From NCBI RefSeq assembly GCF_006345805.1, contig NW_021824612.1, positions 1-17,200 on the forward strand: a stretch of 17,200 nucleotides of DNA, written 5' to 3'. The notes below the pieces were generated by a model. That model was given only the letters and a program-made list of their open reading frames with translations, had not been told where the DNA came from and searched no databases. Source of the DNA: Octopus sinensis. Taxonomy: Eukaryota. Positions 1 through 16,933 of this stretch are shown here, piece after piece (position 1 is the stretch's first letter; every line of letters begins with the position of its first letter). The position numbers were made by a program, and so were the translations under genes.

Positions 1-229
1 CGTGACAGAAGAAGAATTTAGCAACTTTGACTTTTAACTACCCACTGAAAATCTCAAAGAATAAGAACCATAAAAGATTTGGGATATTGTCACAAACTAT
101 GGCTTCATGATTGTCGTTTAAATTACATTTTTACAGGAATGCCACACTTATTAAGCAGGGGAAGATTGTGTTTTATTTCACATCCATCCAAGCTGTGCTA
201 ATCCATTAATAGCATCTAAAAAAGAATTT

Positions 230-332
230 TGTCTGAAATAAAAAAAATATGGCTAGAACTAAACAAACTGCTCGAAAATCTACTGGAGCAAAAGTTCCAA
301 GGAAACAATTGTCTGCAAAATCTGCTCGCAAG
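230..332 (+). other. Captured histone H3 5'UTR + codons 1-28 (tail through K27)
   Basis: Near-identical to the reverse complement of ~11920-12021 (H3 gene). Identity stops right after ...gctcgcaag. Upstream 1-229 does not match the H3 promoter. Confidence 0.95.
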
Positions 333-2061
333 CTGTCTGCACTAAGAAGACTATGCAGAAGTGGAGGCGTTCCCGCTTCGCACTCCCCGGAGGACAAGAC
401 GGTTCAGTGTGCCACTACGATGAACTGCCGGAGCCGTGGTTCACCGCCACGTGCTTCCGGCTATTCTAGTGGTGTTTTTAATTCTTTAGGTCAAAGCAGG
501 AGGTCGAAGCCTGGACCCTCCCAGATGGGTTCAGCACTCACTGAAGACTCTTCTCCCTCTGCTCCCCCTTTGGCTGGTGTCGGGGGAGCAGCAGCTGCAA
601 CAGGTACTAATTGTTTGGTAGCCACGACAACCGCACAGCATGCTGGTTCGCCACGTGTTTGCGGTTTGTCTAGTGGTGCCAAACCCAGCCAACTTAAGTC
701 ATTTAATGCTAACAGGGTGTCGTCTCCTGGCCCGCTCCGGTGGGTCCGGCAGGAAATAAGGTTCCCCCGAGGACGGTTGGCACACGGTGGGGAAGCCGAA
801 ACGTGTTGTGGCCGTCCAACCCCTAATGTTTTAGGTACTGGGTGTGCGTCCGCTCAGGTGGATGCACACCCAAAGAAGACCACTGGCGCGGGGGGTAGAA
901 TTACCTTGGTGCTGTGGCACGACTTGAGGTCCTCCCTACAAGTGGGAAGGCCTCGGTCGTAAAGATCTTAGGTACGTTAGACTCTATCCAGCCTTCAAAG
1001 CTGTATAGAGTCCTGAAGAGGGAGCCCACCCAATTCCTGCTTGGGTGGGGAGAAGGAGGAGGACTTCTTCAGCTTTAAAGGAGAGCTGGAGAAGTCCAGC
1101 CCGTTCGGTCCTGGCATGCATCGGCTTGTCAGGATTGAACAAAAGGTAAGGCAGGTAAGAGTCCTGCTCCTCGGGGTCCCCCGGGACTTCGAGGATAATG
1201 ACCTTTTAGGACACATACAGCGGGAGTAACCCAGTGCCTCTGCCCTTGCACGCTTCAAGCAGGGTAACCGCCCTCTTGAAGTGGTGGAGGTCATCCTGGG
1301 ATCTCCTGCGGAAGCCGAGCGCCTAGTACTTCTGGGTACTAGGATCGGCTACATTAGGATGAGAGCTGCCTGGCCCCGCCCGAAAGCCACCCAATGCTTT
1401 CGGTGTCAGGGGTTCGGGCACATCTCCACAAAGTGCCCAGATAAGGCGAAGTGCCTTATTTGCGGTGGGGAGCATGGTCGCAAGACGTGCCCCTCACCAT
1501 CCAAGGAGAGGCAGTGTGTCAACTGTGGTAAGTTGGGACACACTGCCAACTTCAGAGGTTGCCCCAAGTTCAAGGAGGCAACCCGAAAGGTAGGTGGGGA
1601 TGTAATCCCAACAGTAAGTCGCCCGCGTCGCGTCGCGCGCCCTGCGCCAAAACCTGGCAAGCAGGCGATACTGGCCAAACCTTCCAAATCCGTTTGGGTG
1701 GCGAAGACAGTGGAACTGTGAGCCATGCTACGTGTGGGTCGGTGCAGCCTTCGTCGACAAAGTTGGCAAAGCAGGTGAAAGCTTCCGAGTCCGCTTGGTT
1801 GCCTAAGCCGGCAATGCCTTCTGAGGCGGCTACGGCGGCGCCGTCCGGCACAACCTGGGGCTGAAAAGGCGTCCTCCATACGTGGAGATGCCATTGCACT
1901 CAGCCCCTGGCGAGCGTGTACCGCAGGACAGTATTAATCCTGCGGTGCAATTATGCGTTTCCCTATTAAAATTTTGTAGGGAGATGAATTGCAGTGTAGA
2001 GGAAATGCTACACTGCAACGTTGCCGAGGCCAAGAAGATCCTTGGCGAAGAACCGATATGA
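249..2061 (+). CDS. Family A ORF1 (gag-like nucleic-acid-binding protein) with N-terminal histone H3 tail + H4 peptide; split by several single-base indels
   Basis: Starts [41 protein letters not shown]. Knuckles CFRCQGFGHISTKC, CLICGGEHGRKTC, CVNCGKLGHTANFRGC (~1395-1562). Ends ...KKILGEEPI* (TGA 2059-2061), read by comparison with copy 2, whose indels fall elsewhere. Confidence 0.8.
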
Positions 2062-4660
2062 TGCTCAACATCATATCGGTGAACGCGCGTTCCTTGGAAG
2101 GAAAAAGGGACGCCGTTCAGAGGATGTTGGCCACCACGAGTGCGGACATTCTGGTGGTCAACGAAACGAAGGTAAAGGGGGGTCCGTACGTAGTCGATGG
2201 CTACAACTGTCGTCACATACCCTGGAAACAGGGGTCAATATGTGGCACAGGAACTAGCCTCTTCTACAAGCCCTACCTTGCCTTGCAGAGTCCAGGTATA
2301 TGTTCATGTAGCTTGTGTGAATTCCTCCAAGTGAGAATTCGCATAGGCGAGTTAACATTTTACCTAGGCGGGATGTACTCGAAGAACTTTACGGCGTGCT
2401 CCTGGCACGTACGGGAGTTCTTTGAAAAGCATCCGAAGGCCATGGTTGTTGGGGACCTGAATGCCAAGCATCAAGATCTTGGTTTCAGGGTAACCAACTC
2501 GCATGGTTTGGCTCTGAAGACGCTGGTTGAAGACCTCGGGCTGGAAATCCGGACTTCGAGCGAGCCAAACCACGTCGACGCGAGGGGAGGACGTGACTGG
2601 CTAGGGCTTGCTCTGGTCAGTCCCGGTCTTCTAAATTGGGTTAGTAAAACTATTTTATTGTCCGATATTGGGAGCGACCATCTGCCTCTATTGCACGAAC
2701 TCCGTGAGCCAGTTCCTCAAAGGGTCCCAGGATACTTTGACCTCCGGGTGGGTTCCTGGGCTAACCTGGAGAGTTTCATGGCCAGCAGGTTGCCCTCACT
2801 TCTGGTGGGGAATACCTGCGCCAACATACGTGAGTTGGAGGCGCTTGATAATGGAATCAATGCTGCCCTGACTGATTACATGCGAGATAATTTCAAACAG
2901 AACTCAGTGCAGGGTCAGTCACATTCCACGCTCCCTCACCGGATCTTAAATAAAATTAGGTTCAAGCGCCGGCTATCCAGACTACGGGACAAATGCGTTT
3001 ACGAGGAGAACCGTGTTTGGTTTCGTGGCTGGATTAGCCGGCTTCAGAGGAGATCCGAAGAGAAATCCGCGAACTCGAAAGTTCGCGGTGGGAGAGGGCC
3101 TGCCGAAGGGTGGACCCTCGCTTTCCGGACTTCTGGAAGCAGTTGAAGAGCCTGTCGGGGAGAAGGGGGGCTAAGTCAGTGCGCCTTAAACGCTCTGATG
3201 GAAACCTCGCTTCGGACCCGGTTGAGGTGGTTGAAATACTTTCAGCCCATCTCAATGGCATCTCGGGAACTGACGGAAGTCAGTTCGTAGAGACATCGTC
3301 CTTTGATACTGTCCAGCAGATATTGTCGTGGGACAAGCGCTGCCAGCTGGGCATATCAAGGAACGATGCAGGCGAAATTACTGAAGCGGAGATTCTGGCA
3401 GCAATCTCCCGAAGTAAGAACACCGCGGCGGGTTTGGATCGGATCCCGATGGCCATCTTTAAGAAGGCCCCGCCGCGGTTAATCACTGCACTAAAGGTTT
3501 TATTTAACGGGAGCTTGCGACTTGGGATGATTCCCTCCAGGTGGAAAGTGGCTGAGGTAATCCTTATCGGAAAGCCGGGAAGCCACATGATGTCCCCGGG
3601 GGATATAGGCCCATTTCCTTGCTCCCCGCAATATCTAAAATCCTAGAAAGAATTATGCACCAAAGGCTCCTGGAGGAGCTGATGGTTGCAGACGCCCTCC
3701 CTGAGTTCCAATGGGGCTTCAGGGAGGGCCGCTCATGCGGGGACTGCCTTCACAAGGTGTCGTCTGGTATGAAGAACGCCCTCCAGAAAAGGGAATGCGG
3801 TATTTTAGTTAGTCTCGACATTGAAAAGGCCTTTGACTCGGTGTGGCACGACGGCCTCCGGAGTTCCCTTCACGTGTGGGGTCTCCGTGTCTAAGGCGCT
3901 GGCTGTCGGGGTTTCTTGAATCTCGCAGGCAGGTCGTGCGGCATCAGGGGGTCTTTTCTAAAGTCGCAACAGTCCTTCGCGGGGTCCCTCAGGGCTCTGT
4001 GCTCAGTCCGACACTATTCAATGTGTTTATGGCCACTGCGCCTATGCCAGTCAATGCTCGTACTGAAATGGTAATCTATGCAGACGACATTATCCTCTGG
4101 GATCACTCAATGAAACCGGAGTGTGCGTGTCGTAGGCTTCAGGTTGCTGTGGATGGACTTGCAAACTGGTGTGGGAGTAGGGGTCTGAGAATGTGCGCGG
4201 ACAAGTGCAGTGTCCTTAAAGTCTGTAAAAGACGAGGGGTTACACTAATTTTGTTCCTAGGTTATTGCTGAGCGGGTCAGCAATCGCTGCAGTGATCGGA
4301 TGACTTATTTGGGCGTGCTCTTTAAGCCGTCCGGTAAGTTTGATGATCACATTGCACGTACGAAAATGCGTGCAATGCAGCGATTAGGTGCGTTGCGTGC
4401 TTTCCGCTTGAGCAGAGGTGCCTGGTTCCGCGTGTTAACGCCATGGTGTTACCCGTCTTGACCTATGGCGTCCACGCTTGGTACCTCTATGAGGACAGGG
4501 ATAAGCATGTTGACGTGCTTAAAAAATAAGAAGACGAGCCATAAGGCTAGCCTATGGCTTAGGATTCCGGACTGAGCTCTCCGACGCCCAGGAATCATCT
4601 CTCAAAGGCCTCTCTGAGGTCCTAGAGAAGATTATTTCTGGATGGCAGGTAAGGCGGTAA
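2058..4660 (+). CDS. Family A ORF2: APE endonuclease + reverse transcriptase (frameshifted in this sequence)
   Basis: MMLNIISVNARSL, VVNETK, VGDLNAKH, GSDHLP (APE). AAGLDRI, WKVAEVILIGKPG, KILER, QWGFREGRS, LDIEKAFDSVWHDGL, GVPQGSVLSPTLFN, IYADD (YADD 4077-4088), YLGV (RT). Stop TAA 4658-4660. No RNase H or C-terminal CCHC recognised. Confidence 0.9.
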
Positions 4661-4755: not shown

Positions 4756-4798
4756 TTAACTTATAATGTTTTTTCCCCCCCGCCTGAAACTGTTTTGT
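4756..4798 (+). promoter_or_regulatory. Diverged H3-like core promoter (TATA + leader) upstream of element B ORF1
   Basis: ttaacttataa-N15-gcctgaaactgttttgt versus the H3 upstream ttaactatataa-N14-gcctgaaacttgttctgt (reverse complement of ~12019-12062). Confidence 0.55.
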
Positions 4799-4821: not shown

Positions 4822-6167
4822 ATGGCACCTAAGAAAAACTCAAAAGAAAACGCAAAAGCAAACACTGAAGGACAAAAAAGAACAAAAGTTCCAAGGAAAC
4901 AATTGTCTACAATAAGAAACCTATGTCGAAGTGGGAGTGTTCTGACGGATCGGACGGCTCAACATGTTTCCATCAAAGTTGAAGAAGATTCCACCGAACA
5001 ATTTGGAGGTGCTCCGACGGTCCAGATGGTTCAAGGAGAGCCCTCCAAAGTTGAAGAATCCACCGAACCCCCGAGGTCTGACCTTAACAGCTCAGGCCTC
5101 ACATTCACTCTGAGCATTAATAACCCGGCACTTGGAAAGATCAAGAGGTTTAACCTCCTATCCAAGTCGCCAACTGCCTCCAAAGCACGGATTACATTAC
5201 AACGCTCAGGCTCCTTCACTCTTGAGTTCAGGAGCCCCGGAGATGCTGATGCATTCTCGGCTGAGCTTGCAAGATTGAACCCGTTTGGCGAAGGCGGCCA
5301 TAAACTTGCCTTAGTTACTCCGCAAAAGTCAGCACTAGTCCTAAAGGGGATTCCGCGATGGATCTCCAATCGGGACCTAGAGCTGCACCTGAAGGAAACC
5401 CTCAGTTCGGTGTTCGTTCTCGAGCGATTCACGCGAGATGGTCTCGACATCCCAGTTGCTAAGCTGACGCTTGACTCACGAGCTGAAGCTACTTCTTTGA
5501 TCCGCACCGGAATCACAGCTGGTTTCTGCCTTATCACCTGTGAATGGTTCAGGCCTCCTGTCGTCCGATGTTTCCATTGTCAGAGATTCGGACACCTGTC
5601 CCGTAACTGTCAAGAAAAAGCCCGGTGCTTATACTGCGGCAAGGACCACGACCGGAGGGAATGCCCAGGCAGCAAACAAAGTCCAGTGGAGCCCTGCGGT
5701 CGGCATTGTATCAATTGTGACCGCCCCGGCCACCTCGCTTCGTATGGTGGATGCCCGACGGCCAAAGCTGCAACAGCAGCTAAATGGGCCGCCCGCGCAG
5801 AAGCAATGCCTCGGTCTCCTAACCCAACCCGCATGGAAATGGTAAAAGCTAAGCCGGTCACGCCTATCTGGAAAGTACGGCCGCTAATAACCCCGTGTGT
5901 GGCGGACGCCCATACCCAGACGACGCAAGTCGTTGAGGTTGGTGCGCAGAGCATGCAGGCCCCTGTCGCCGAGGCTGTGAAACCGAGGCCCGTCAGCCCA
6001 ATAAGGAACGGTACTCAGCAGCCAAAACGCAGGCGAAGGTATAGACTCACAACAAGGATGCTCTGTTGGAATTTTACCAACGCTGTGTCGACTCACTGCT
6101 GAAACTGGGAGTCAAACCCAAGAAGCTAGAGGAGCTCCTATCAGAGAGGAGCTCGCCAGCAAAATGA
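4822..6167 (+). CDS. Element B ORF1 (gag-like, 3x CCHC) with H2B/H3/H4 mosaic N-terminus; one late frameshift
   Basis: MAPK..GQKR (H2B-like), KVPRKQLS (H3), TIRNLCRSGSV (H4-like). Knuckles CFHCQRFGHLSRNC, CLYCGKDHDRREC, CINCDRPGHLASYGGC. The alternative frame ends ...ERSSPAK* overlapping the ORF2 ATG. Confidence 0.8.
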
Positions 6168-6716
6168 CCACGCCACTAAAAATCATCGCTGTGAATGCCC
6201 GATCTGTCAAGAGACGGCACCTCGACTTCGTTGAGATGGTAAACAGCGGCCATCCTGACTTAATCGTCGTCAACGAGTCTAAGCTGAAAGAAGGTCAATG
6301 CTTCGAATTGCCAGGATACTGCTCCCTTGACCTGAAATGGAGAAATAACTCTACGCCTGGGACTGGGACGACTATCTACTACCTGCAAAATCTCAAGACA
6401 CGTAACCTCAAGACTATCGAACGGAACCTATGCGAATTTATCTCGCTAGAGATTAAAACCCAGCGCTTTTGGTTAAAAGTGGGCGGAATATATTGCAAAA
6501 ACCTTGCTCCATGCATCGGTCTTATCGAAGACTTCTTTGTCAGCTCAAATCATTGCCTCCTCATCGGTGATCTAAACTCCAAACACACGGCATTTGGTTG
6601 TCGCGTGACCAATCGGGACGGCCGGTTACTTGAAAGAGCGGCAGGTAGGCTAGACGTCTGTGTCCGCACCTCGAAAGCCCGGAACCACCGCTCCCCATTC
6701 GGCTGGGACAACCTTT
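6164..6716 (+). pseudogene. Element B ORF2 fragment: APE endonuclease N-terminal part
   Basis: LKIIAVNARSV, IVVNESK, IGDLNSKH, TNRDGRLL; homologous to family A APE; truncated before the SDH motif. Confidence 0.85.
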
Positions 6717-7999
6717 GCGTAGCACCCCAGTAGGGTCAGGGCTCCTACACAACAGCGGAAGCATTCCAGTTGGGAATCTCTGTTGTGTAGGTCCTGATCC
6801 GAGAGGGGACCTCTTTGTGACAAAGCTTTGTCACGGTGGGTTTTTCTCCTCTTATGAGGGACAGCCGAGCGGACCACTTCTGAGTTATGGCACTCATTAG
6901 TGGTTGTCTTCGAGTTTGTGATTGTGCTGGGGGCCGGCGACGTCTGAGTAGAGACATCGACTTTGGACGGACTTGGAGGAGCCGCTTTTGTCCAGACTGA
7001 TTTCATCGGTTCGGCTTTTACCCAGCGTACTGGGCTTTTTGTCTGTGGGCTCTTCGCAACCCTTGAGGCTGCTGTTGCTGCTTTGGCAGACGGACATCCA
7101 CCGTAGCAAGCCAAGTGCCCAGTGTTCTTGCAGTTAATGCAAGTTTTTGCAGCTGGGACACTCGGTTTCGGCTTGAAACCCGGGCAGTTTTGGTGCCTGT
7201 GTTCTTTACCGCAGAGGAGACAACGGAGTTTTTCGGAGCATCTGTAGGACGTATGTCCGAACTGATTGCAACGGAAGCATCTCGTTGCTGACGGCTTGTG
7301 CCATTCGCAGCGGATATGGCTGAAGCCCGCAGTTATTCCAAAGTCCGATTCTAGACTTTCTCTCAAGTGGAGGTTAAGATCCTCTGTCGAGATCCAATGA
7401 GGGATTCCTTTAAGGACCAAGACTGAGGCCTTCTCAGCTACTGAGGCAAGTTTATGGCCGCCTTCGCCAAACATATTCGATTGAGACAGCTCTGCTTTGA
7501 AAGCAGCAGCATCCTCGGGCGAACTGAATTTTAGAATGAAGGTGCCGGACTTCTGTAAAGTTATCCGGGCTTTCGAAGCAGTTGGAGACTTGGATAAAAG
7601 GTTAAACCTCTTGATCTTTCCAAGTGCCGAGTTTTCGATACTCAGAGAATATGTGAGGTTTGAGCTGTTAGGCTCAGTTGTCGTCTGATGGCATTGGGTC
7701 TCAATGTGTTTTTGAGTCACAGCAGGGTTCGGATGTTCGGTGGGATATTCATCTTTTATGGGTTCGCAAAAGGGCTGTGGCTTTGCCGCTGTTCGTCTTT
7801 GAACATGGGAGCAAGCTTTGATTGATGAGAGATTTTGTTTATTCTTTGACATCCCAAGTTGATTATGTACTGTCTTTAAAATTTTCATAAGATATATGGA
7901 AAAAGTTTTCCTTTTCTTTTTTTTCTTTGTAGCAACAGAAACATTTTTGTTTTTTATAGGAGCTCTTTTTTGTCCCTTTGTGCTAACTTTAGGTGCCAT
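6650..7999 (-). CDS. H2B(1-52)-ORF1 in-frame fusion protein (last ~20 codons run into antisense element B)
   Basis: Uninterrupted frame from the H2B ATG (7999): MAPKVSTK...HNQLGMSK|NKQNLSSI...CFRCNQFGHTSYRC...CLLCGKEHRHQNC...CINCKNTGHLACYGGC. About 31-aa in-frame deletion relative to B. Confidence 0.75.
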   Translation of the reverse strand: MAPKVSTKGQKRAPIKNKNVSVATKKKKKRKTFSIYLMKILKTVHNQLGMSKNKQNLSSIKACSHVQRRTAAKPQPFCEPIKDEYPTEHPNPAVTQKHIETQCHQTTTEPNSSNLTYSLSIENSALGKIKRFNLLSKSPTASKARITLQKSGTFILKFSSPEDAAAFKAELSQSNMFGEGGHKLASVAEKASVLVLKGIPHWISTEDLNLHLRESLESDFGITAGFSHIRCEWHKPSATRCFRCNQFGHTSYRCSEKLRCLLCGKEHRHQNCPGFKPKPSVPAAKTCINCKNTGHLACYGGCPSAKAATAASRVAKSPQTKSPVRWVKAEPMKSVWTKAAPPSPSKVDVSTQTSPAPSTITNSKTTTNECHNSEVVRSAVPHKRRKTHRDKALSQRGPLSDQDLHNRDSQLECFRCCVGALTLLGCYAKVVPAEWGAVVPGFRGADTDV

Positions 8000-8054
8000 T
8001 ATCCACAAAATTTGCAAGTTCTGAAGGGAAAAAATCTCATATAATAAAAAAGTA
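6713..8054 (-). mobile_element. Element C: relative of B whose ORF1 is fused behind H2B 5' flank and 52 H2B codons; 3'-truncated
   Basis: Shares ALGKIKRFNLLSKSPTASKARITLQ and three knuckles with B. 7842-8054 matches H2B 15150-15362. Confidence 0.85.
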
Positions 8055-8065
8055 CTTGAAAGAGC

Positions 8066-11000
8066 GGCCATAAACACATTGAATAGTGTCGGACTGAGCA
8101 CAGAGCCCTGAGGGACCCCGCGAAGGACTGTTGCGACTTTAGAAAAGACCCCCTGATGCCGCACGACCTGCCTGCGAGATTCAAGAAACCCCGACAGCCA
8201 GCGCCTTAGACACGGAGAAACCCCACACGTGGCAAGGGAACTCCGGAGGCCGTCGTGCCACACCGAGTCAAAGGCCTTTTCAATGTCGAGACTAACTAAA
8301 ATACCGCATTCCCTTTTCTGGAGGGGGCGTTCTTCATACCAGACGACACCTTGTGAAGGCAGTCCCCGCATGAGCGGCCCTCCCTGAAGCCCCATTGGAA
8401 CTCAGGGAGGGCGTCTGCAACCATCAGCTCCTCCAGGAGCCTTTGGTGCATAATTCTTTCTAGGATTTTAGATATTGCGGGGAGCAAGGAAATGGGCCTA
8501 TATCCCCCGGGGACATCATGTGGCTTCCCGGGCTTTCCGATAAGGATTACCTCAGCCACTTTCCACCTGGGGGGAATCATCCCAAGTCGCAAGCTCCCGT
8601 TAAATAAAACCTTTAGTGCAGTGATTAACCGCGGCGGGGCCTTCTTAAAGATGGCCATCGGGATCCGATCCAAACCGCCGCGGGTGTTCTTACTTCGGGA
8701 GATTGCTGCCAGAATCTCCGCTTCAGTAATTTCGCCTGCATCGTTCTTGATATGCCCAGCTGGCAGCGCTTGTCCCACGACAATATCTGCTGGACAGTAT
8801 CAAAGGACGATGTCTCTACGAACTGACCTCCGTCAGTTCCCGAGATGCCATTGAGATGGGCTGAAAGTATTTCAACCACCTCAACCGGGTCCGAAGCGAG
8901 GTTTCCATCAGAGCGTTTAAGGCGCACTGACTTAGCCCCCCTTCTCCCCGACAGGCTCTTCAACTGCTTCCAGAAGTCCGGAAAGCGAGGGTCCACCCTT
9001 CGGCAGGCCCTCTCCCACCGCGAACTTCGAGTTCGCGGATTTCTCTTCGGATCTCCCTCTGAAGCCGGCTAATCCAGCCACGAAACCAAACACGGTTCTC
9101 CTCGTAACGCATTTGTCCCGTAGTCTGGATAGCCGGCGCTTGAACCTAATTTTATTTAAGATCCGGTGAGGGAGCGTGGAATGTGACTGACCCTGCACTG
9201 AGTTCTGTTTGAAATTATCTCGCATGTAATCAGTCAGGCAGCATTGATTCCATTATCAAGCGCCTCCAACTCACGTATGTTGGCGCAGGTATTCCCACCA
9301 GAAGTGAGGGCAACCTGCTGGCCATGAAACTCTCCAGGTTAGCCCAGGAACCCACCCGGAGGTCAAAGTATCCTGGGACCCTTTGAGGAACTGGCTCACG
9401 GAGTTCGTGCAATAGAGGCAGATGGTCGCTCCCAATATCGGACAATAAAATAGTTTTACTAACCCAATTTAGAAGACCGGGACTGACCAGAGCAAGCCCT
9501 AGCCAGTCACGTCCTCCCCTCGCGTCGACGTGGTTTGGCTCGCTCGAAGTCCGGATTTCCAGCCCGAGGTCTTCAACCAGCGTCTTCAGAGCCAAACCAT
9601 GCGAGTTGGTTACCCTGAAACCAAGATCTGATGCTTGGCATTCAGGTCCCCAACAACCATGGCCTTCGGATGCTTTTCAAAGAACTCCCGTACGTGCCAG
9701 GAGCACGCCGTAAAGTTCTTCGAGTACATCCCACCTAGGTAAAATGTTAACTCGCCTATGCGAATTCTCAATTGGAGGAATTCACACAAGCTACATGAAC
9801 ATATACCTGGACTCTGCAAGGCAAGGTAGGGCTTGTAGAAGAGGCTAGTTCCTGTGCCACATATTGACCCCTGTTTCCAGGGTATGTGACGACAGTTGTA
9901 GCCATCGACTACGTACGGACCCCCCTTTACCTCGTTTCGTTGACCACCAGAATGTCCGCACTCGTGGTGGCCAACATCCTCTGAACGGCGTCCCTTTTTC
10001 CTTCCAAGGAAGCGCGTTCACGATATGATGTGTTGAGCATCATATCGGTTCTTCGCCAAGGATCTTCTTGGCCTCGGCAACGTTGCAGTGTAGCATTTCC
10101 TCTACACTGCAATTCATCTCCCTACAAAATTTTAATAGGGAAACGCATAATTGCACCGCAGGACTAATACTGTCCTGCGGTACACGCTCGCCAGGGGCTG
10201 AGTGCAATGGCATCTCCACGTATGGAGGACGCCTTTTCAGCCCCAGGTTGTGCCGGACGGCGCCGCCGTTAGCCGCCTCAGAAGGCATTGCCGGCTTAGG
10301 CAACCAAGCGGACTCGGAAGCTTTCACCTGCTTTGCCAACTTTGTCGGCGAAGGCTGCACCGACCCACACGTAGCATGGCTCACAGGTTCCACTGTCTTC
10401 GCCACCCAAACGGATTTGGAAGGTTTGGCCAGTATCGCCTGCTTGCCAGGTTTTGGCGCAGGGCGCGCGACGCGACGCGGGCGACTTACTGTTGGGATTA
10501 CATCCCCACCTACCTTTCGGGTTGCCTCCTTGAACTTGGGGCAACCTCTGAAGTTGGCAGTGGTGTCCCAACTTACCACAGTTGACACACTGCCTCTCCT
10601 TGGATGGTGAGGGGCACGTCTTGCGACCATGCTCCCCACCGCAAATAAGGCACTTCGCCTTATCCGGGCACTTGTGGAGATGTGCCCGAACCCCTGACAC
10701 CGAAAGCATTGGGTGGCTTTCGGGCGGGGCCAGGCAGCTCTCATCCTAATGTAGCCGATCCTAGTACCCAGAAGTACTAGGCGCTCGGCTTCGCAGGAGA
10801 TCCCAGGATGACCTCCACCACTTCAAGAGGGCGGTTACCCTGCTTGAAGCGTGCAAGGGCAGAGGCACTGGGGTACTCCCGCTGTATGTGTCCTAAAAGG
10901 TCATTATCCTCGAAGTCCCGGGGACCCCGAGGAGCAGGACTCTTACCTGCCTTACCTTTTGTTCAATCCTGACAAGACGATGCATGCCAGGACCGAACGG

Positions 11001-11527
11001 GCTGGACTTCTCCAGCTCTCCTTTAAAGCTGAAGAAGTCCTCTCCTTCTCCCACCCAAGCAGGATTGGGTGGGCTCCCTCTTCAGGACTCTATACAGCTT
11101 TGAAGGCTGGATAGAGTCTAACGTACCTAAGATCTTTATGACCGAGGCCTTCCCACTTGTAGGGAGGACCTCAAGTCGTGCCACAGCACCGAAGGTAATT
11201 CTGCCCCGGGCGCCAGTGGTCTTCTTTGGGTGTGCATCCACCTGATCGGACACACACCCAGTACCTAAAACATTAGGGGGGGTTGGACGGCCAGCCGCAC
11301 GTTTGGGTTTCCCCACCGTGTACCAACCGTCCTCAAGGGCAACCTTATTTCCTGCCGTACCCACCGGGACGGCCTCAGGAGACGACACCCTGTTGGCATT
11401 AATTGACTTACCTAGGCTGGGTTTGGCACCACTAGACAAACCGCAAACACGTGGCGAACCAGCATGCTGTGCGGTTGTCGTGGCTACCAAACAATTAGTA
11501 CCTGTTGCAGCTGCTGCTCCCCCGACA
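8066..11527 (-). mobile_element. Family A copy 2, truncated at both ends (equivalent to 578-4034 of copy 1): partial ORF1 11527-10040, ORF2 10043-8066 ending before YADD
   Basis: Near-identical reverse complement of copy 1, with a cluster of substitutions at ~11290-11420. Confidence 0.95.
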
Positions 11528-11590: not shown

Positions 11591-12002
11591 TTATGTTTTT
11601 TCACCTCGAATTCTTCTCGATAAATGCATATCGTTTGGCATTATAGTTACTCTTTTTCCGTGAATTGCGCACAAATTACTATCTTCAAAAATTCCAACTA
11701 GGTAACTCTCTGCCGCTTCTTGGAGAGCGACAATCGCTGACGATTGAAAACGCAAATCAGTTTTGATAAACTGAGCGGTTTCTCTCACGAGTCTCTGGAA
11801 TGGAAGTTTTCGTAGTAACAAATCAGTGCTCTTTTGATATCGTCTAATTTCTCGCTTGCTGCAACAACTCCAGGTCGAAATCGATGAGGTTTCTTTACCC
11901 CTCCAAATTGTGAAACAGACTTGCGAGCAGATTTTGCAGACAAATGTTTCCTTGGAACTTTTGCTCCAGTAGATTTTCGAGCAGTTGTTTAGTTCTAGCC
12001 AT
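11591..12002 (-). CDS. H3: Histone H3, divergent (apparent indels near the 5' end)
   Basis: MARTK...[38 protein letters not shown]...[39 protein letters not shown]...RRIRGEKT*. Confidence 0.95.
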
Positions 12003-12063
12003 ATTTTTTTTATTTCAGACAGAACAAGTTTCAGGCTAGTTATTTTTGTTTTATATAGTTAAA

Positions 12064-12119
12064 CAAAATTATTCCGAATTTTTCGAGTGATGCAAAAAAG
12101 TATCATTCCGAAAATTTTT
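12064..12119 (-). promoter_or_regulatory. Histone upstream motif (AAAATTTTCGGAATGATACTTTTTTGCAT) plus degenerate second copy, ahead of the H3 TATA
   Basis: The same motif pair recurs upstream of H4 and H2B. Confidence 0.7.
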
Positions 12120-12280
12120 GGTTAAATCACTCATCATTTTTAAAATTACAAAAATTATATTTTTTAAAATAATATTTTATCAGCACCATCAAATAATTGT
12201 AACTATTGCTTAAATTGATGAATTTTTCGAGATTACAGACTAAATTACTAGTGAACTAATTAAGAAAAAACAGAGAACGA

Positions 12281-12470
12281 TCAGATCCGGTCAAAAGAAT
12301 AGCTTGGTGTTGCCGCGCATGATTGTACCAGAGATCCTCTGTCTTAGCCAAGAAGATTCGCTTGCATCCATGTTTCTCCGAGCGATAAGGAGGCAGACGT
12401 GTTTTAAGAACTTGGATGTTTGCGGGACAAAGCTGCGGAGATCTGAATGCCAAAGGGACCAATTACTAGT
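12281..12470 (-). mobile_element. 3' remnant of a restriction-like-endonuclease (CRE/R2-type) non-LTR element, duplicate copy
   Basis: ...FVPQTSKFLKHVCLLIARRNMDASESSWLRQRISGTIMRGN resembles the REL C-terminal 'L.QRLS..I.RGN' motif. Confidence 0.55.
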
Positions 12471-12531
12471 TGCATTTGGATTGTTGAAATAGTTATTTAA
12501 AGAAATAAATAAAACAATTATTTTTAAAGTG

Positions 12532-12859
12532 TTATTTTGTATTCGTGTACTTAGTAACTGCCTTTGCACCCTCTGTAAAGGCATGTTTTGCCAATTCACC
12601 GGGAAGAATCCGACGAACTGCAGTCTGTATTTCACGTGAGGTAATGGTAGCCTTCGAATTCTGATAGACTAGATTTGATTTTGCCTCGGTTTTATTTTGT
12701 CATAAACATCAAATGTGAAAATGTCCATAGCCACATAGCCTTCTTTGACATCCCAAGTTGATATGTACTGTCTTTAAATTTTCATAAGATATATGGAAAA
12801 AGTTTTCCTTTTCTTTTTTTTGTTTGTTGCAACAGAAACATTTTTGTTTTTTATAGGAG
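12532..12859 (-). pseudogene. H2B: Histone H2B, lacking the first ~12-13 codons, with multiple indels
   Basis: Reverse-complement match to 15242-15570; the 5' end is replaced by Tc1-like sequence. Confidence 0.9.
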
Positions 12860-13131
12860 TCGGCAATAGACGCAAAGAGCTTTTTTCAAGTAAAATATCG
12901 AATTACTACTATGGCCAACACAAAGCCCAGATTTAAACCTTAGAGAATGTTTGGCCTTTATTAAAGAAAAAATCAAAGGAAGAGAATTTTTGAAAAAGGA
13001 ACATTTATTTGCAAAAAAATATCATCCATTTGGAATTAACTCAAAATAGATACGCAAAAAGTCTTATTAATAGCATGCCAGGCCGAATACTAGATGTAAT
13101 TAGAGCTAATGGAGGACATAATAGATATTAA
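12860..13131 (+). mobile_element. Tc1/mariner-superfamily transposase C-terminal remnant
   Basis: IELLLWPTQSPDLN..ENVW and KSLINSMPGRILDVIRANGGHNRY* match Tc1 WPxQSPDLNPIENxW and SMPxR...GGxTKY. Candidate right ends are ...ccgTA (13183) or cactgTA (13320-13326). Confidence 0.85.
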
Positions 13132-13546
13132 ATAAATTTGTTCATTTTTTGGGTTCTGAATTATGAATGAATGGAAAACCGTATTATAAATATAATTTTT
13201 TAGACAAACTAAAAAATAAAGCAAAACTTTATTTAATTTTATAAATCAATAGATGTTATTTTTTAAATATTGTTTCATAGTAAATCATGAGAAAATGCTT
13301 TTTCAGTTTTTATTTTGTTCACTGTATATATTTACTATTTTTTGGGATAATTAGCCTAAGTAAATAAATTATATTGGACTAAAAAAATATTTCGCCAATG
13401 ATAAAATAACACAGTATTGCGATATTTTATCTATAATTACTTCTAAATGTTTATTCGTTTTGTGTTTGAAATTTTTTGAATTCGTTAAAAAAACTTAACT
13501 GGTTGATCTATTGTATTCGAAAACAATATTACAAAATAACAGTGCA

Positions 13547-13920
13547 TTATTCAAATAATAATTTAAAGTTAGAAGTTGGTTTAGGAGTTTCTGCAGTTTT
13601 GCGAATCATAAATCCACCAGATGAAAAATAGCTTTCTGAGTTTATTCTTTAATTCGTCGTCATTTCCAATTGCAACGACAATGTGACGTGGTTTAATTCT
13701 TCTTTTTCCACATTTTACTGCTGTATTTCCAGCAAGTTCAAGCATTTCAGCCACAGCTATTCCAATACTGCGCACATATATACTGCGGAAGGATTCCTAC
13801 TCGCATTCGGGTTCATGACGGAGACACCGGTGAATGCGTACACTGGAAACTGTAACCCGGCCCGAACGGATTTGCTTTTAGCCTTTGACCGTACTTTCCT
13901 CCTTTTCCTCTTGAAGACAT
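13547..13920 (-). CDS. H2A: Histone H2A, strongly divergent, several indels; 3' end approximate
   Basis: MSSRGKGGK..KAKSKSVRAGLQFPV.RIHR...AVYMCAVLE..AEMLELAGNTA...KRRIKPRHIVVAIGNDDELK...GG. Confidence 0.85.
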
Positions 13921-13979
13921 TATACTCTGCTAACTATTTTTATTTACATAATAAAAAAAATGGCATCGAAATTTAGTTG

Positions 13980-14047
13980 AAAAATTTTTCGGAATGGTCC
14001 TTTTTTGCATTAGTCGAAAAAATTTGGCAATGATACTTTTTTTGCAT
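13980..14047 (+). promoter_or_regulatory. Tandem histone upstream motifs in the divergent H2A/H4 promoter
   Basis: aaaatttttcggaatggtccttttttgcat followed by aaaaatttggcaatgatactttttttgcat. Confidence 0.7.
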
Positions 14048-14084
14048 AGGTTGAAAATAGTGTTTATTTAGAGAATTTTTCCTA

Positions 14085-14393
14085 ATGTCTGGACGTGGTA
14101 AAGGTGGCAAAGGAGGAAAGAGTGGTGGCAAAACGATTTCGAAAGATATTAATGACAATATACAAGGAATTACTAAGCCAGCAATAAGAAGACTATGTCG
14201 AAGAGGGGGGTGTTCGAAGAATTTCTGGAAAAATTTACGAGGAGACACGTTCTGTCCTTAAGATTTTTATTGAGCAAACTGTTCGTGATTGTATTTCTTA
14301 TACTGAACATGCCAAAAGAAAAACTGTTATCGCAATGGACGTTGTTAATGCCTTGAAACGTCAGGTAGGACAATTTACGGATTTGGTGGATAA
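14085..14393 (+). CDS. H4: Histone H4, divergent (compensating indels in G runs)
   Basis: [11 protein letters not shown]...[38 protein letters not shown]...[30 protein letters not shown]. Confidence 0.95.
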
Positions 14394-14622
14394 ATTATAC
14401 ATAATTTTTTTAATAAAATACATTGATATTCCTTACAAATTAACCAGATAAAAATTAGCAATTTCATAAATATACTAACTAGCTACCAAACGACGGTGAA
14501 ATTACTACGATTGCTTTTTTAATTGGTAAGAAATCTTGTGAAATAACAAAAAACAAAAAGTATATTTATACAGTAAATTAGAGTTATATCGTTTGAAAAA
14601 TTTATTTTTTTCTAATAGTTTA

Positions 14623-14670
14623 TTTTTTTGCATCTGTTTATAATTATGTTTATTTAGAGAATTATTGCGA
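14623..14670 (+). repeat. Diverged duplicate of the H4 proximal promoter/5'UTR (~14037-14084)
   Basis: ttttttgcat...tgtttatttagagaatt-N7-ATG in both places. Confidence 0.7.
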
Positions 14671-14913
14671 ATGGACCCCAGAGCTCCGGCCAATCGGGCA
14701 ATGGACGATTATTTCTCCGAACATGGAGACAAATATCGGGGAAGACCTAGATCCACTCTTCCGACAGTTCTTGAAAGGGATCTCAAACTTCATGGCAAAA
14801 GTTTCAAAAACTGGGACGACCTAGAATCTTTACGGGATCTCGCCCGCAACAGAAGGGCATGGACAAGGATGGTCCAGAAGATTGTTTCGCTTGTGACACG
14901 TGTGGGATTATAA
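14665..14913 (+). mobile_element. 5'-truncated RTE-like non-LTR retrotransposon C-terminus (80-aa ORF from ATG 14671)
   Basis: LRMDPRAPA...RGRPRSTL...ERDLK...LARNRRAW resembles the RTE-clade C-terminal (GHxLRM...RGRP...DL...A.DR..W) region. Confidence 0.7.
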
Positions 14914-15097
14914 CTTTGTTTATGTTCCTACGGAATGTGTTATAATAACTAAAAACATCAAAATTGATATTAATTCGGATTTATTTAAAATTGATTTGAC
15001 GTATTAATTCATTCTTTTTCTTTTTGAGCCATTCCTTAGCTCTTTAACTGCAATCTCTTGTCGACCATCACCAATCTGATTTCAATCGTCAACTTCA

Positions 15098-15160
15098 AAA
15101 ATTTTGGAATTATACTTTTTTTGAATTACTCAACAAAATTTCGGAATGATACTTTTTTAT
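15098..15160 (+). promoter_or_regulatory. Tandem histone upstream motifs before H2B
   Basis: aaaattttggaattatactttttttg and aaaatttcggaatgatactttttt, followed by TATA-like tattata. Confidence 0.7.
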
Positions 15161-15204
15161 TATATGAGATTTTTTCCCTTCAGAACTTGCAAATTTTGTG
15201 GATA

Positions 15205-15570
15205 ATGGCACCTAAAGTTAGCACAAAGGGACAAAAAAGAGCTCCTATAAAAAGCAAAAATGTTTCTGTTGCTACAAAGAAAAAAAAGAAAAGGAAAACT
15301 TTTTCCATATATCTTATGAAAATTTTAAAGACAGTACATAATCAACTTGGGATGTCAAAGAAGGCTATGATGGCTATGGACAGTTTCACATTTGATGTTT
15401 ATGACAAAATAAAAACCGAGGCATCAAATCTAGTCTATCAGAATTCGAAGGCTACCATTACCTCACGTGAAATACAGACTGCAGTTCGTCTGATTCTTCC
15501 CGGTGAATTGGCAAAACATGCTATTACAGAGGGTGCAAAGGCAGTTACTAAGTACACGAATACAAAATAA
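15205..15570 (+). CDS. H2B: Histone H2B, intact, 121 aa
   Basis: MAPK...[40 protein letters not shown]...[35 protein letters not shown]. Confidence 0.97.
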
Positions 15571-15635: not shown

Positions 15636-15827
15636 CTAGTAATTGTCCCTTTGGCATTCGAGATCTCCGCAGCCTTTGTCCCGCAAACATCCAAGTTCTT
15701 AAAACACGTCTGCCTCCTTATCGCTCGGAGAAACATGGATGCAAGCGAATCTTCTTGGCTAAGACAGAGGATCTCTGGTACAATCATGCACGGCAACACG
15801 CAAGCTATTCTTTTGACCGGGATCTGA
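15636..15827 (+). mobile_element. 3' remnant of a REL-endonuclease (CRE/R2-type) non-LTR element in the H2B downstream spacer
   Basis: GC-richer island translating IVPLAFEISAAFVPQTSKFLK...WLRQRISGTIMHGNTQAIL. Confidence 0.55.
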
Positions 15828-16170
15828 TCGTTCTCTGTTTTTTCTTTAATTAGTTCACTAGTAATTTAGTCTGTAATCTCGAAAAATTCATCAATTTAAG
15901 CAATAGTTACAATTATTTGATGGTGCTGATAAAATATTATTTTAAAAATATTTAATTTTTTAATTTTAAAAATGATGAGTGATTTAACCAAAAAATTTTC
16001 GGAATGATACTTTTTCGAAAAAATTCGGATTATTATCAGCACTGCCGAGAACACATAAAAAACCAAAATCAATTTAGTTCCTTTGTGTCGCGCAGACTAC
16101 CCTTTGCACAAATCGTATTCAAAGCCCTTTCCGTTTCGTTTTAGCAAAGAATTTCTATTGCCATTCTCGA

Positions 16171-16933
16171 TTGAAGGCTGGATTGAGTCCAAGGTACCTA
16201 GGATCTTTACGACCGAGGCCTTCCCACTTGTAGGGGACCTCAAGTCGTGCCACAGCACCAAAGGTAATTCTACCCCCGGCGCCAGTGGTCTTCTTTGGGT
16301 GTGCATCCACCTGAGCGGACGCACACCAGTACCTAAAACATTAGGGGTTGGACGGCAGCAACACGTTTCGGCTTCCCCCCACCGTGTGCCACACCGTCCT
16401 CGGGGGGAACCTTATTTCCTGCCGGACCCACCGGAGCGGGCCCAGGAGACGACACCCTGTTAGCATTAAATGACTTAAGTTGGCTGGGTTTTGGCACCAC
16501 TAGACAAACCGCAAACACGTGGCGAACCAGCATGCTGTGCGTTGTCGTGGCTACCAAACAATTAGTACCTGTTGCAGCTGCTGCTCCCCCGACAACCAGC
16601 CATAGGGGGAGCAGAGGAAGAAGTGTCTCCAGTGAGTGCTGAACCCACCTGGAGGGTCCAGGCTTCGACCTCCTGCTTGACCTAAAGAATTAAAAACACC
16701 ACTAGAATAGCCGGAAGCACGTGGAGGTGAACCACGGCTCCGGCAGTCATCGTAGTGGCACACTGAACCGTCTTGTCCTCCGGGGAGTGCGAAGCGGGAA
16801 CGCCTCCACTTCTGCATAGTCTTCTTAGTGCAGACAGCTTGCGAGCAGATTTTGCAGACATTGTTTTCCTTGGAACTTTGCTCCAGTAGATTTTCGAGCA
16901 GTTTGTTTAGTTCTAGCCATATTTTTTTTATTT
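16171..16933 (-). mobile_element. Family A copy 3: 5' portion only, again starting with H3 5'UTR + H3 tail + H4 peptide (ATG at 16920)
   Basis: Reverse-complement match to ~236-998, with its own substitutions. Confidence 0.95.

Follow-up and report, generated by a model that had tools for sequence, protein, structure and literature searches.

How did the first open reading frame (ORF1) of a mobile element come to start with parts of two histones, and does the element make use of them? The question is raised by position 230 of the stretch analyzed here, a 17,200-nt piece of the Octopus sinensis assembly referred to throughout as the window. A preliminary description had read the sequence from this position as the 5′ untranslated region (UTR) and tail of histone H3, ending at K27 and joined to a peptide from helix 1 of histone H4.

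Composition of the head

That reading was borne out. The match to H3 is exact from 19 nt before the ATG (249) through the K27 codon, and alignment with the H3 gene of the window itself (12024-11915, minus strand) gave 96% identity from 227-230 to 332-336. Positions 230..248 (plus strand) are the 5′ UTR of H3 paralogue 1 and form the 5′ end of the element; 249..332 (plus strand) hold the H3 ATG, which is the first ATG of ORF1, and the codons up to K27. As had been stated, K4, K9, K14, K18, K23, and K27 are all kept in the translated head, and H3 chains in the PDB match its residues 1-30. The residues LSA (333..341, plus strand) preserve L20-S21-A22 of an earlier H3 head, with parallels in RQLSA of H2B-headed copies and in KQLST and EQLSA of family B. 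The GCA at 339-341 is common to H3 A22 and H4 A33.

The H4 relic, residues 33-43 (ALRRLCRSGGV; 339..371, plus strand), matches codons 33-43 of clean H4 at 27/33 nt; the window's own H4 read contains one extra G, as described. Two differences, I34L and R40S, are nonsynonymous, and those at C38, R39, G41, and G42 are synonymous. The earlier count of four synonymous differences in six holds against clean H4 but becomes three in five against H4 genes with GGA at G41, and the synonymous share alone is not significant in either case (P = 0.058 and P = 0.14, respectively). The match itself exceeds chance: in controls scored against the four histone genes, the best of 2,000 base shuffles reached 22/33, the best of 2,000 codon shuffles reached 25/33, and no other 33-mer of the element, out of 397, scored above 21/33.

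Simple insertion of the element into an H3 gene after K27 was considered and rejected on two grounds. The AT-rich foreign flank at 1..229 is not the promoter of an H3 paralogue, as it lacks the histone promoter motif TTCG[GC]AAT and matches nothing else in the fetched loci. In addition, none of 40 family-A 3′ tails precedes H3 from S28 on. To judge from its surroundings, the copy at 230 is one that has moved away from a histone promoter.

The head belongs to a LINE

The remainder of ORF1 (372..2060, plus strand) comprises a low-complexity linker, a gag-like core, and three CCHC knuckles, and domain matches place an APE endonuclease and a reverse transcriptase (RT) in ORF2 (2058..4660, plus strand). 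The Pfam-type domains are zf-CCHC in ORF1 and Exo_endo_phos_2 and RVT_1 in ORF2. Both frames are broken by indels in the window copy; ORF1 is open in L084 and L096, and ORF2 is open over 870 aa in L032. By domain content, the head is the beginning of ORF1 of an APE-type LINE (non-LTR retrotransposon), designated family A. Other hallmarks of LINEs are a 3′ tail (AATAAA plus a simple repeat), 5′ truncation, and target-site duplication, the last in families B, B2, and E and not in A. Members of the Jockey/I group have a three-knuckle ORF1 and an ORF2 of about 900 aa without RNase H. The present elements fit this pattern and, from architecture alone, may be called Jockey/I-like. PRE_C2HC occurs in 44% of the members of one Atlas neighbor cluster. 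ORF2 of family A is 88% identical to that of its sister family F and 32% identical to that of family B.

The 3′ tail of the first family-A copy (4762..4781, plus strand) is here the core promoter of H2B paralogue 2, from TATA box to start. It is followed by an H3-start tag (4782..4798, plus strand), the 5′ end of a family-B element. The head of that element (4822..4941, plus strand) has an H2B-like start, a relic of H3 13-21 (4880-4912), and the H4 helix-1 relic; its ORF1 and truncated ORF2 extend over 4822..6722 (plus strand). On the minus strand lie a family-B2 ORF1 fused in frame to the H2B TATA region, 5′ UTR, and 52 codons (6723..8054), a second, 5′-truncated family-A copy (8063..11527), and a third family-A copy with the same H3-H3-H4 head (16171..16933). 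The H2B-B2 fusion, present as a single copy, is by its structure a new head capture.

In the family-A subfamily concerned (window 4762-4781; L028, L009, and L029), the H2B paralogue-2 core promoter replaces AATAAA at the 3′ end. Such a terminal copy could restore promoters to displaced histone genes. A GG following the A tail was tried as a cap-derived addition from template jumping and rejected, being native H2B paralogue-2 sequence.

Origin of the DNA and its histone genes

Dicyemids are tiny parasitic worms that live in octopus kidneys. We infer that the window derives from a dicyemid co-assembled with its cephalopod host, on the basis of an innexin match, introns of about 30 nt, and the presence of two H4 classes. 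An intronless innexin adjoining the elements has its best match in innexin 1 of Dicyema koshidai (53%). Two RBBP4-like genes with introns of about 30 nt lie on small contigs, and a third lies on a chromosome-scale contig. Within the assembly (G000), a divergent H4 class on small contigs stands against an 81%-identical class found mostly on chromosome-scale contigs. The contigs may accordingly be flagged as parasite DNA within a host assembly. The 67.5-Mb genome of D. japonicum has a mean intron of 38 bp and 49% repeats, including LINE ORF2 copies (PMC6736024); the main text of that report makes no mention of histones.

Sequence matches locate the histone genes at 11591..12125 (H3 with promoter, minus strand; gene 11591-12002, ATG 12002-12000), 13560..13920 (H2A, minus strand, divergent from H4), 14085..14393 (H4, plus strand, with indels in the window read), and 15090..15570 (H2B with promoter, plus strand; gene 15205-15570). 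The putative dicyemid histones encoded there (11591-15570) are strongly divergent: H4 is 81% identical to that of the host, carries A38C, and lacks one residue of the tail, and H3 reads S28-V-S-Q-F. An H2B in the database (P0006), labeled as ant and carried on a 2.3-kb contig, is 75% identical to the dicyemid H2B over its full length and far closer to it than other animal H2Bs are; it may reflect contamination or a related parasite.

All four histone promoters contain, 60-100 nt upstream of the start, a tandem element of the AAAATTTCGGAATGATACTTTTT type (window 13970-14050, 15085-15160, 12060-12125, and 15980-16030), which is a candidate site for a histone-specific regulator and a candidate targeting anchor. 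Between the H2B 3′ end and the H3 promoter lies a segment of about 250 bp (segment X; window 12250-12500 and 15660-15900) that is conserved at 85-97% identity in both cluster types, with no Rfam match and no clear ORF; it is possibly a small gene or noncoding RNA on the far side of the H3 promoter. Another conserved segment, between H4 and H2B (segment Y; window 14660-14910), contains an 80-aa ORF resembling a LINE C terminus and, upstream, a duplicate of the H4 start region. Rfam gave no match anywhere in the window.

Heads are exchanged and renewed

A census of heads covered 567 kb of fetched contigs and six small loci. A histone head is present at each of the 37 intact family-A starts, being H3 to K27 in 29 and H2B in 8; the H2B heads contribute 25 codons and are followed by RQLSA. 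Beyond these 37, at least eight ORF1s start with H4. A shortened A subfamily bears H4 codons 1-53 (six copies by pattern and two more in the map), and family F bears an H4 1-50 head (two copies by pattern). An open in-frame fusion of histone and ORF1 exists for every head type, although in-frame joins were favored in sampling because the H4-headed fusions were found through a listing of long ORFs. No histone-like segment was present among the best 150 of 13,997 ORF1 relatives, and none of seven matches to the head contained a retroelement Pfam domain; the four of these that were inspected are ordinary or frameshifted H3.

The sequences upstream of the heads vary among copies, from which it follows that heads travel with the element. 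They are also current. One of two H3 paralogues is matched at all five diagnostic sites by 24 of 25 heads, and both paralogues (p1 and p2) occur on both bodies (A1/p1, 5; A1/p2, 6; A2/p1, 1; A2/p2, 13). Since heads equal present host sequence and every combination exists, they must have been replaced repeatedly at the same junction. The K27 end itself is, as its sequence reads, one microhomology junction inherited by all H3-headed copies and not a repeated choice. Of the earlier suggestion, the old H4 capture and the recent H3 refresh are supported, and protein-level constraint on the H4 part is made likely but not firm, by the paralogue and subfamily data, which also extend it. Synonymous differences between an H2B head and the window H2B were tried as a sign of selection and set aside, as the head matches a second paralogue.

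Where the heads begin bears on how they arose. Among H3 heads, 24/29 start 9-30 nt before the ATG, 3 extend into the H3 promoter, and 2 scored zero; among H2B heads, 7/8 start in the 9-to-30-nt interval. Such mRNA-like positions are what template jumping would produce, in which the RT, while copying LINE RNA, changes over to a free histone mRNA and continues as far as its 5′ end, promoter-linked copies arising later by recombination. Microhomology at junctions agrees with it, as do two heads that combine the UTR of one paralogue with the coding part of another (L086 and L004). Template jumping leaves unexplained, however, why non-histone mRNA heads are lacking, with none among the 37 family-A starts.

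The 29/37 share of H3 among family-A heads, its repeated refresh at one junction, and a free N terminus carrying the tail with all six lysines could instead mean that the H3 tail is a selected function, the ORF1 protein (ORF1p) displaying K4, K9, and K27 as a decoy or as a handle for chromatin readers and writers. Nevertheless, copies of the same body headed by H2B (8) or by H4 (at least 6) also propagate, all that remains of H3 in family B is 13-21, and F, B2, and E are without H3. No selection can be read from the head because it is essentially identical to the host gene. Interchangeability of the tail weakens the case for H3-specific mimicry, which we consider improbable; the special role for the H3 lysines that the preliminary description implied finds no support in a body that also bears other histones.

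Older heads persist as relics behind newer ones. Family B reads H2B-like start, H3 13-21, H4 33-43, and the H3-H4 motif recurs 33 residues later, so that full-length B copies contain it twice; the second copy preserves the original join, in which H3 QLSA and H4 AIRR overlap on GCAA. Families A and B have the H3-H4 junction in common at the DNA level together with the R40S change, and because their ORF2s are only 32% identical, the head most likely passed between them. Such sharing is what exchange of heads between neighbors at the same sites would yield. The relics suggest an order of capture in which H4 helix 1 is oldest, followed by H3 to A22 and then by H3 to K27 or H2B. Behind the fresh H4 head of family F lies a second, much older putative helix-1-like relic, AITRL[AS]RGG, which is synonymously diverged. 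A decayed B2-like element (L092:4914-5130) has an old, diverged H2B head, indicating an earlier H2B capture in the B2-like lineage also.

The heads differ in what they provide for translation. In H4-headed ORF1s, no Met apart from that of the head precedes the gag core, and B2 and E use an ATG of their own. The head ATG of family A may be dispensable, given an internal one at window 420.

Insertions are concentrated at histone gene starts

Insertion sites were surveyed in the best 40 of 167 candidate A tails, chosen by tail similarity alone. A sense histone start window is abutted by 24/40 (23/40 once a likely chance 9-mer is dropped; about 17/31 with tandem duplicates collapsed), against a background of 5.3 to 6.0% in two sets of 20,000 random windows; 17/40 lie elsewhere than at a sense histone start. 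The insertions are found preferentially at the starts of H2A, H2B, H3, and H4 genes, mostly in sense orientation and about 10-35 nt before the ATG, and part of the abutted starts are histone-derived tags of neighboring elements rather than genes. For family B, 9 of all 34 tails, with 6 unparsed tails entered as misses, lie at a sense histone start (8 after removal of one chance match) and at least 25 do not; three are antisense in the H2B promoter, and about 11/34, counted by eye, stand in front of a different dispersed repeat. Histone starts are also where families B2, E, and F end. A LINE tail lies upstream of 24/76 histone starts, a share biased upward because contigs were fetched for holding elements or histones.

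In five cases, a headless element is flanked by a histone promoter and its gene. Four have target duplications of 12-16 bp, corresponding in these sister families to the first 12-16 nt of the start region, and the fifth has a 2-nt overlap only; of the four, one contains a tandem repeat and one stands before an H3 pseudogene. These short duplications belong to B, B2, and E, and none comes from family A, whose promoter-linked junctions have a different anatomy: a head-length duplication in C10250, a deletion of about 1 kb from H4 codon 53 to the H2B start in C2131, and a duplication of about 1 kb from the H2B start to H3 codon 27 in C8744. Later recombination in tandem clusters could also have produced the family-A anatomy.

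For every head type, at least one copy lies behind the promoter of the matching histone: H3 p1 (C8744:158270), H3 p2 (C10250:7516 and C2287:7607), H4 on A (C2131) and on F (C9339), H2B on A (C8884, with a 40-nt promoter deletion), and H2B on B2 (in the window, TATA region only). Template jumping leaves these promoter-linked copies without explanation, as it does the tails at histone starts and the 12-16-bp duplications there, and we regard it as unlikely. Copying of the head from the 5′ end of an H3 mRNA, as first proposed, is disfavored on the same evidence; the short UTR is more readily understood as the leading end of a chimeric RNA that would have begun at a histone promoter.

The four start regions have no long motif in common at the junction but do have in common an upstream TTCGGAATGATAC-type repeat, a combination that suggests tethering to promoter-bound factors rather than sequence-specific cutting.

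Family B has a second hotspot, at the same position at the start of a dispersed repeat of about 95 bp (169 candidates) that has a GC-rich inverted-repeat part. Both B subfamilies use it, at L189:47-141 (G000:C7757:106074-106168) and at roughly 10 more 3′ junctions of the family. Members of different families also lie tail to tail, oppositely oriented, at a single insertion site, A with F in L061 (G000:C9068:295-419) and A with B in L057 (G000:C12598:122304-122388).

A model for head capture

We propose that these LINEs target histone transcription starts, use the host promoter, and gain or refresh heads when the 5′ junction resolves inside histone sequence, and we assign this reading a probability of roughly 0.7. 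The first strand would be nicked at the histone start, where the tail would pair with the pyrimidine-rich start. The usual 5′ join would fall 12-16 nt downstream and leave the element behind an intact promoter, an outcome seen for B, B2, and E. The histone promoter would then transcribe the element, giving RNA that begins with a histone 5′ tag; both the transcription start and the chimeric transcript are predictions from the junctions. More rarely, as the anatomy of junctions suggests, the join would lie 80-170 nt into the histone gene, through microhomology or through homology to a head already in place, and would create or refresh a head of 5′ UTR, ATG, and 25-53 histone codons. Joins in frame would survive because they supply the start codon of ORF1. 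Heads would thereafter move with the element, and successive captures would leave nested relics.

The assembly is indel-rich and has many inverted duplications. The fusions could therefore be by-products or artifacts, with LINEs piling up in histone clusters that are unstable and the parts joined by ectopic recombination or by chimeric assembly, and the many inversions, tandem units, and indels fit such an origin. Against it, the same junction recurs in 29 copies with many flanks, some on contigs without a histone gene in the fetched stretch, motif variation among subfamilies is synonymous, and the target duplications are clean; this explanation is very improbable. The system of head-bearing LINEs is real and multi-copy, and it has probably been active recently.

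Possible constraint on the H4 helix-1 relic

Among A subfamilies, the 4 changes counted in the H4 relic are all synonymous, with 0 nonsynonymous, one singleton C-to-F change aside. In the adjoining linker, 27 are nonsynonymous and 12 synonymous (omega of about 0.8; Fisher P = 0.015 against the relic, with small numbers and a region picked post hoc), and omega in the gag core is 0.17. This pattern suggests that protein-level selection has retained H4 helix 1, in contrast to the interchangeable outer tail.

Helix 1 of H4 binds RbAp46 through I34, L37, A38, R35, R36, R39, and R40, of which R39 and R40 are named as crucial (PMC2572730). The relic overlaps this RbAp46/48-binding segment and retains L34, R35, R36, L37, and R39; position 40 is serine in A and B, and B also has R36N. 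On the side of the candidate partner, both RBBP4-like genes attributed to the dicyemid (L181 and L182) have the DGPPEL loop, and the N-terminal F-L pair is kept in L181 (by script) and L182 (by eye), so that the pocket looks intact.

It is conceivable, if doubtful, that helix 1 in ORF1p, often beside an H3 tail, is a real ligand for an RBBP4/7-type chaperone. Helix 1 is present on every full 5′ end of A, F, and B, joined by the older putative relic in F and doubled in B, and the A subfamily without the relic has regained helix 1 through its H4(1-53) head. Points against a chaperone ligand are R40S and the fact that B2 and E reach the same sites without the motif, which means that helix 1 is not required for targeting in cis. 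If the ligand is real, ORF1p might be carried to histone promoters by complexes that contain a chaperone, or might weaken silencing complexes. The parasitized genes would then furnish the element with a promoter, a start codon, timing to S phase, and a peptide for targeting or against silencing, all renewed with each insertion, and the retrotransposon would contain a self-refreshing histone mimic.

Relation to known elements

Promoter-borrowing, target-specific LINEs are known at rDNA. Elements of the R1/R2 type have no promoter of their own, are co-transcribed from the host unit, form the 5′ junction with the aid of homology to the upstream target, and occupy one fixed site in rDNA or snRNA genes. 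The histone LINEs would resemble them in promoter borrowing, with which their anatomy is consistent, and differ in using four histone gene types at positions of about −3 to −60, with about 40% of A insertions elsewhere. Tx1-clade elements reportedly occur in histone H2B genes, which would be a precedent for histone targeting and not for head capture; the literature searched yielded neither that report nor any description of a histone-headed ORF1 or a LINE targeting histone starts.

The tags of HeT-A, an element of Drosophila telomeres, are noncoding, whereas those described here are translated as the N terminus of ORF1. HeT-A tags derive from upstream sequence whose promoter began the RNA, and the elements form tandem arrays (bioRxiv 10.1101/782904); the nested relics of the histone LINEs resemble such strings of 5′ tags, and tandem arrays are likewise present. 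HeT-A borrows the promoter of a sibling element at telomeres, and here the promoter is that of a host gene. TRE5-A, a non-LTR element of Dictyostelium, and also Ty3 and DGLT-A insert, in compact genomes, at a defined position with respect to the starts of genes in one multicopy class (PMC5006619), as do the histone LINEs, for which start-distance targeting is a preference and not exclusive. Those three elements insert upstream of the start of tRNA genes transcribed by Pol III, with no coding heads ascribed to them in that source, and the TRE5-A ORF1p has been implicated in binding promoter-bound TFIIIB (PMC5006619). Unlike TRE5-A and Ty3, the present elements use Pol II histone genes, insert between promoter and gene, and take up 5′ UTR, ATG, and codons. 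PMC5371812 and PMC4455052 added nothing pertinent to the comparison.

Promoter-borrowing, target-specific elements are already known at tRNA genes and telomeres (PMC5006619; 10.1101/782904); what appears to be new, within the literature searched, is a promoter-parasitic, target-specific LINE with translated, renewable histone heads. Many histone genes have been severed from their promoters, which would imply conflict with the host if the proposed reading is right. In that case the system also offers a LINE targeted to Pol II start sites with 12-16-bp duplications, of relevance to promoter-directed insertion, a layered record of how a transposable element renews its 5′ end and N terminus, and a direct test case for a transposon protein that uses a histone-chaperone ligand. 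It may represent a new way of switching on and aiming mobile DNA.

Other mobile sequences in the histone clusters

Remnants of a Tc1-like transposase joined to 5′ parts of H2B were found at window 12860-13130 and in L208-L211. The latter were tried as LINE heads and rejected, since in all four a Tc1-like remnant interrupts an H2B gene; a LINE tail nevertheless lies at the start of every one of them, as it does in the window. A tandem-repeat insert following the H2B start (L093:6360-8081, minus strand, and L085) is open as a long repetitive ORF, occurs once behind an H2B head, and may be a non-autonomous element carried along by family B. Further long ORFs within the clusters, at L179:3057-4388 (minus strand, 444 aa), L170:5839-7743 (635 aa), L080:1984-3210 (minus strand, 409 aa), and L084:2133-3914 (minus strand, 594 aa), apparently stem from additional mobile elements.
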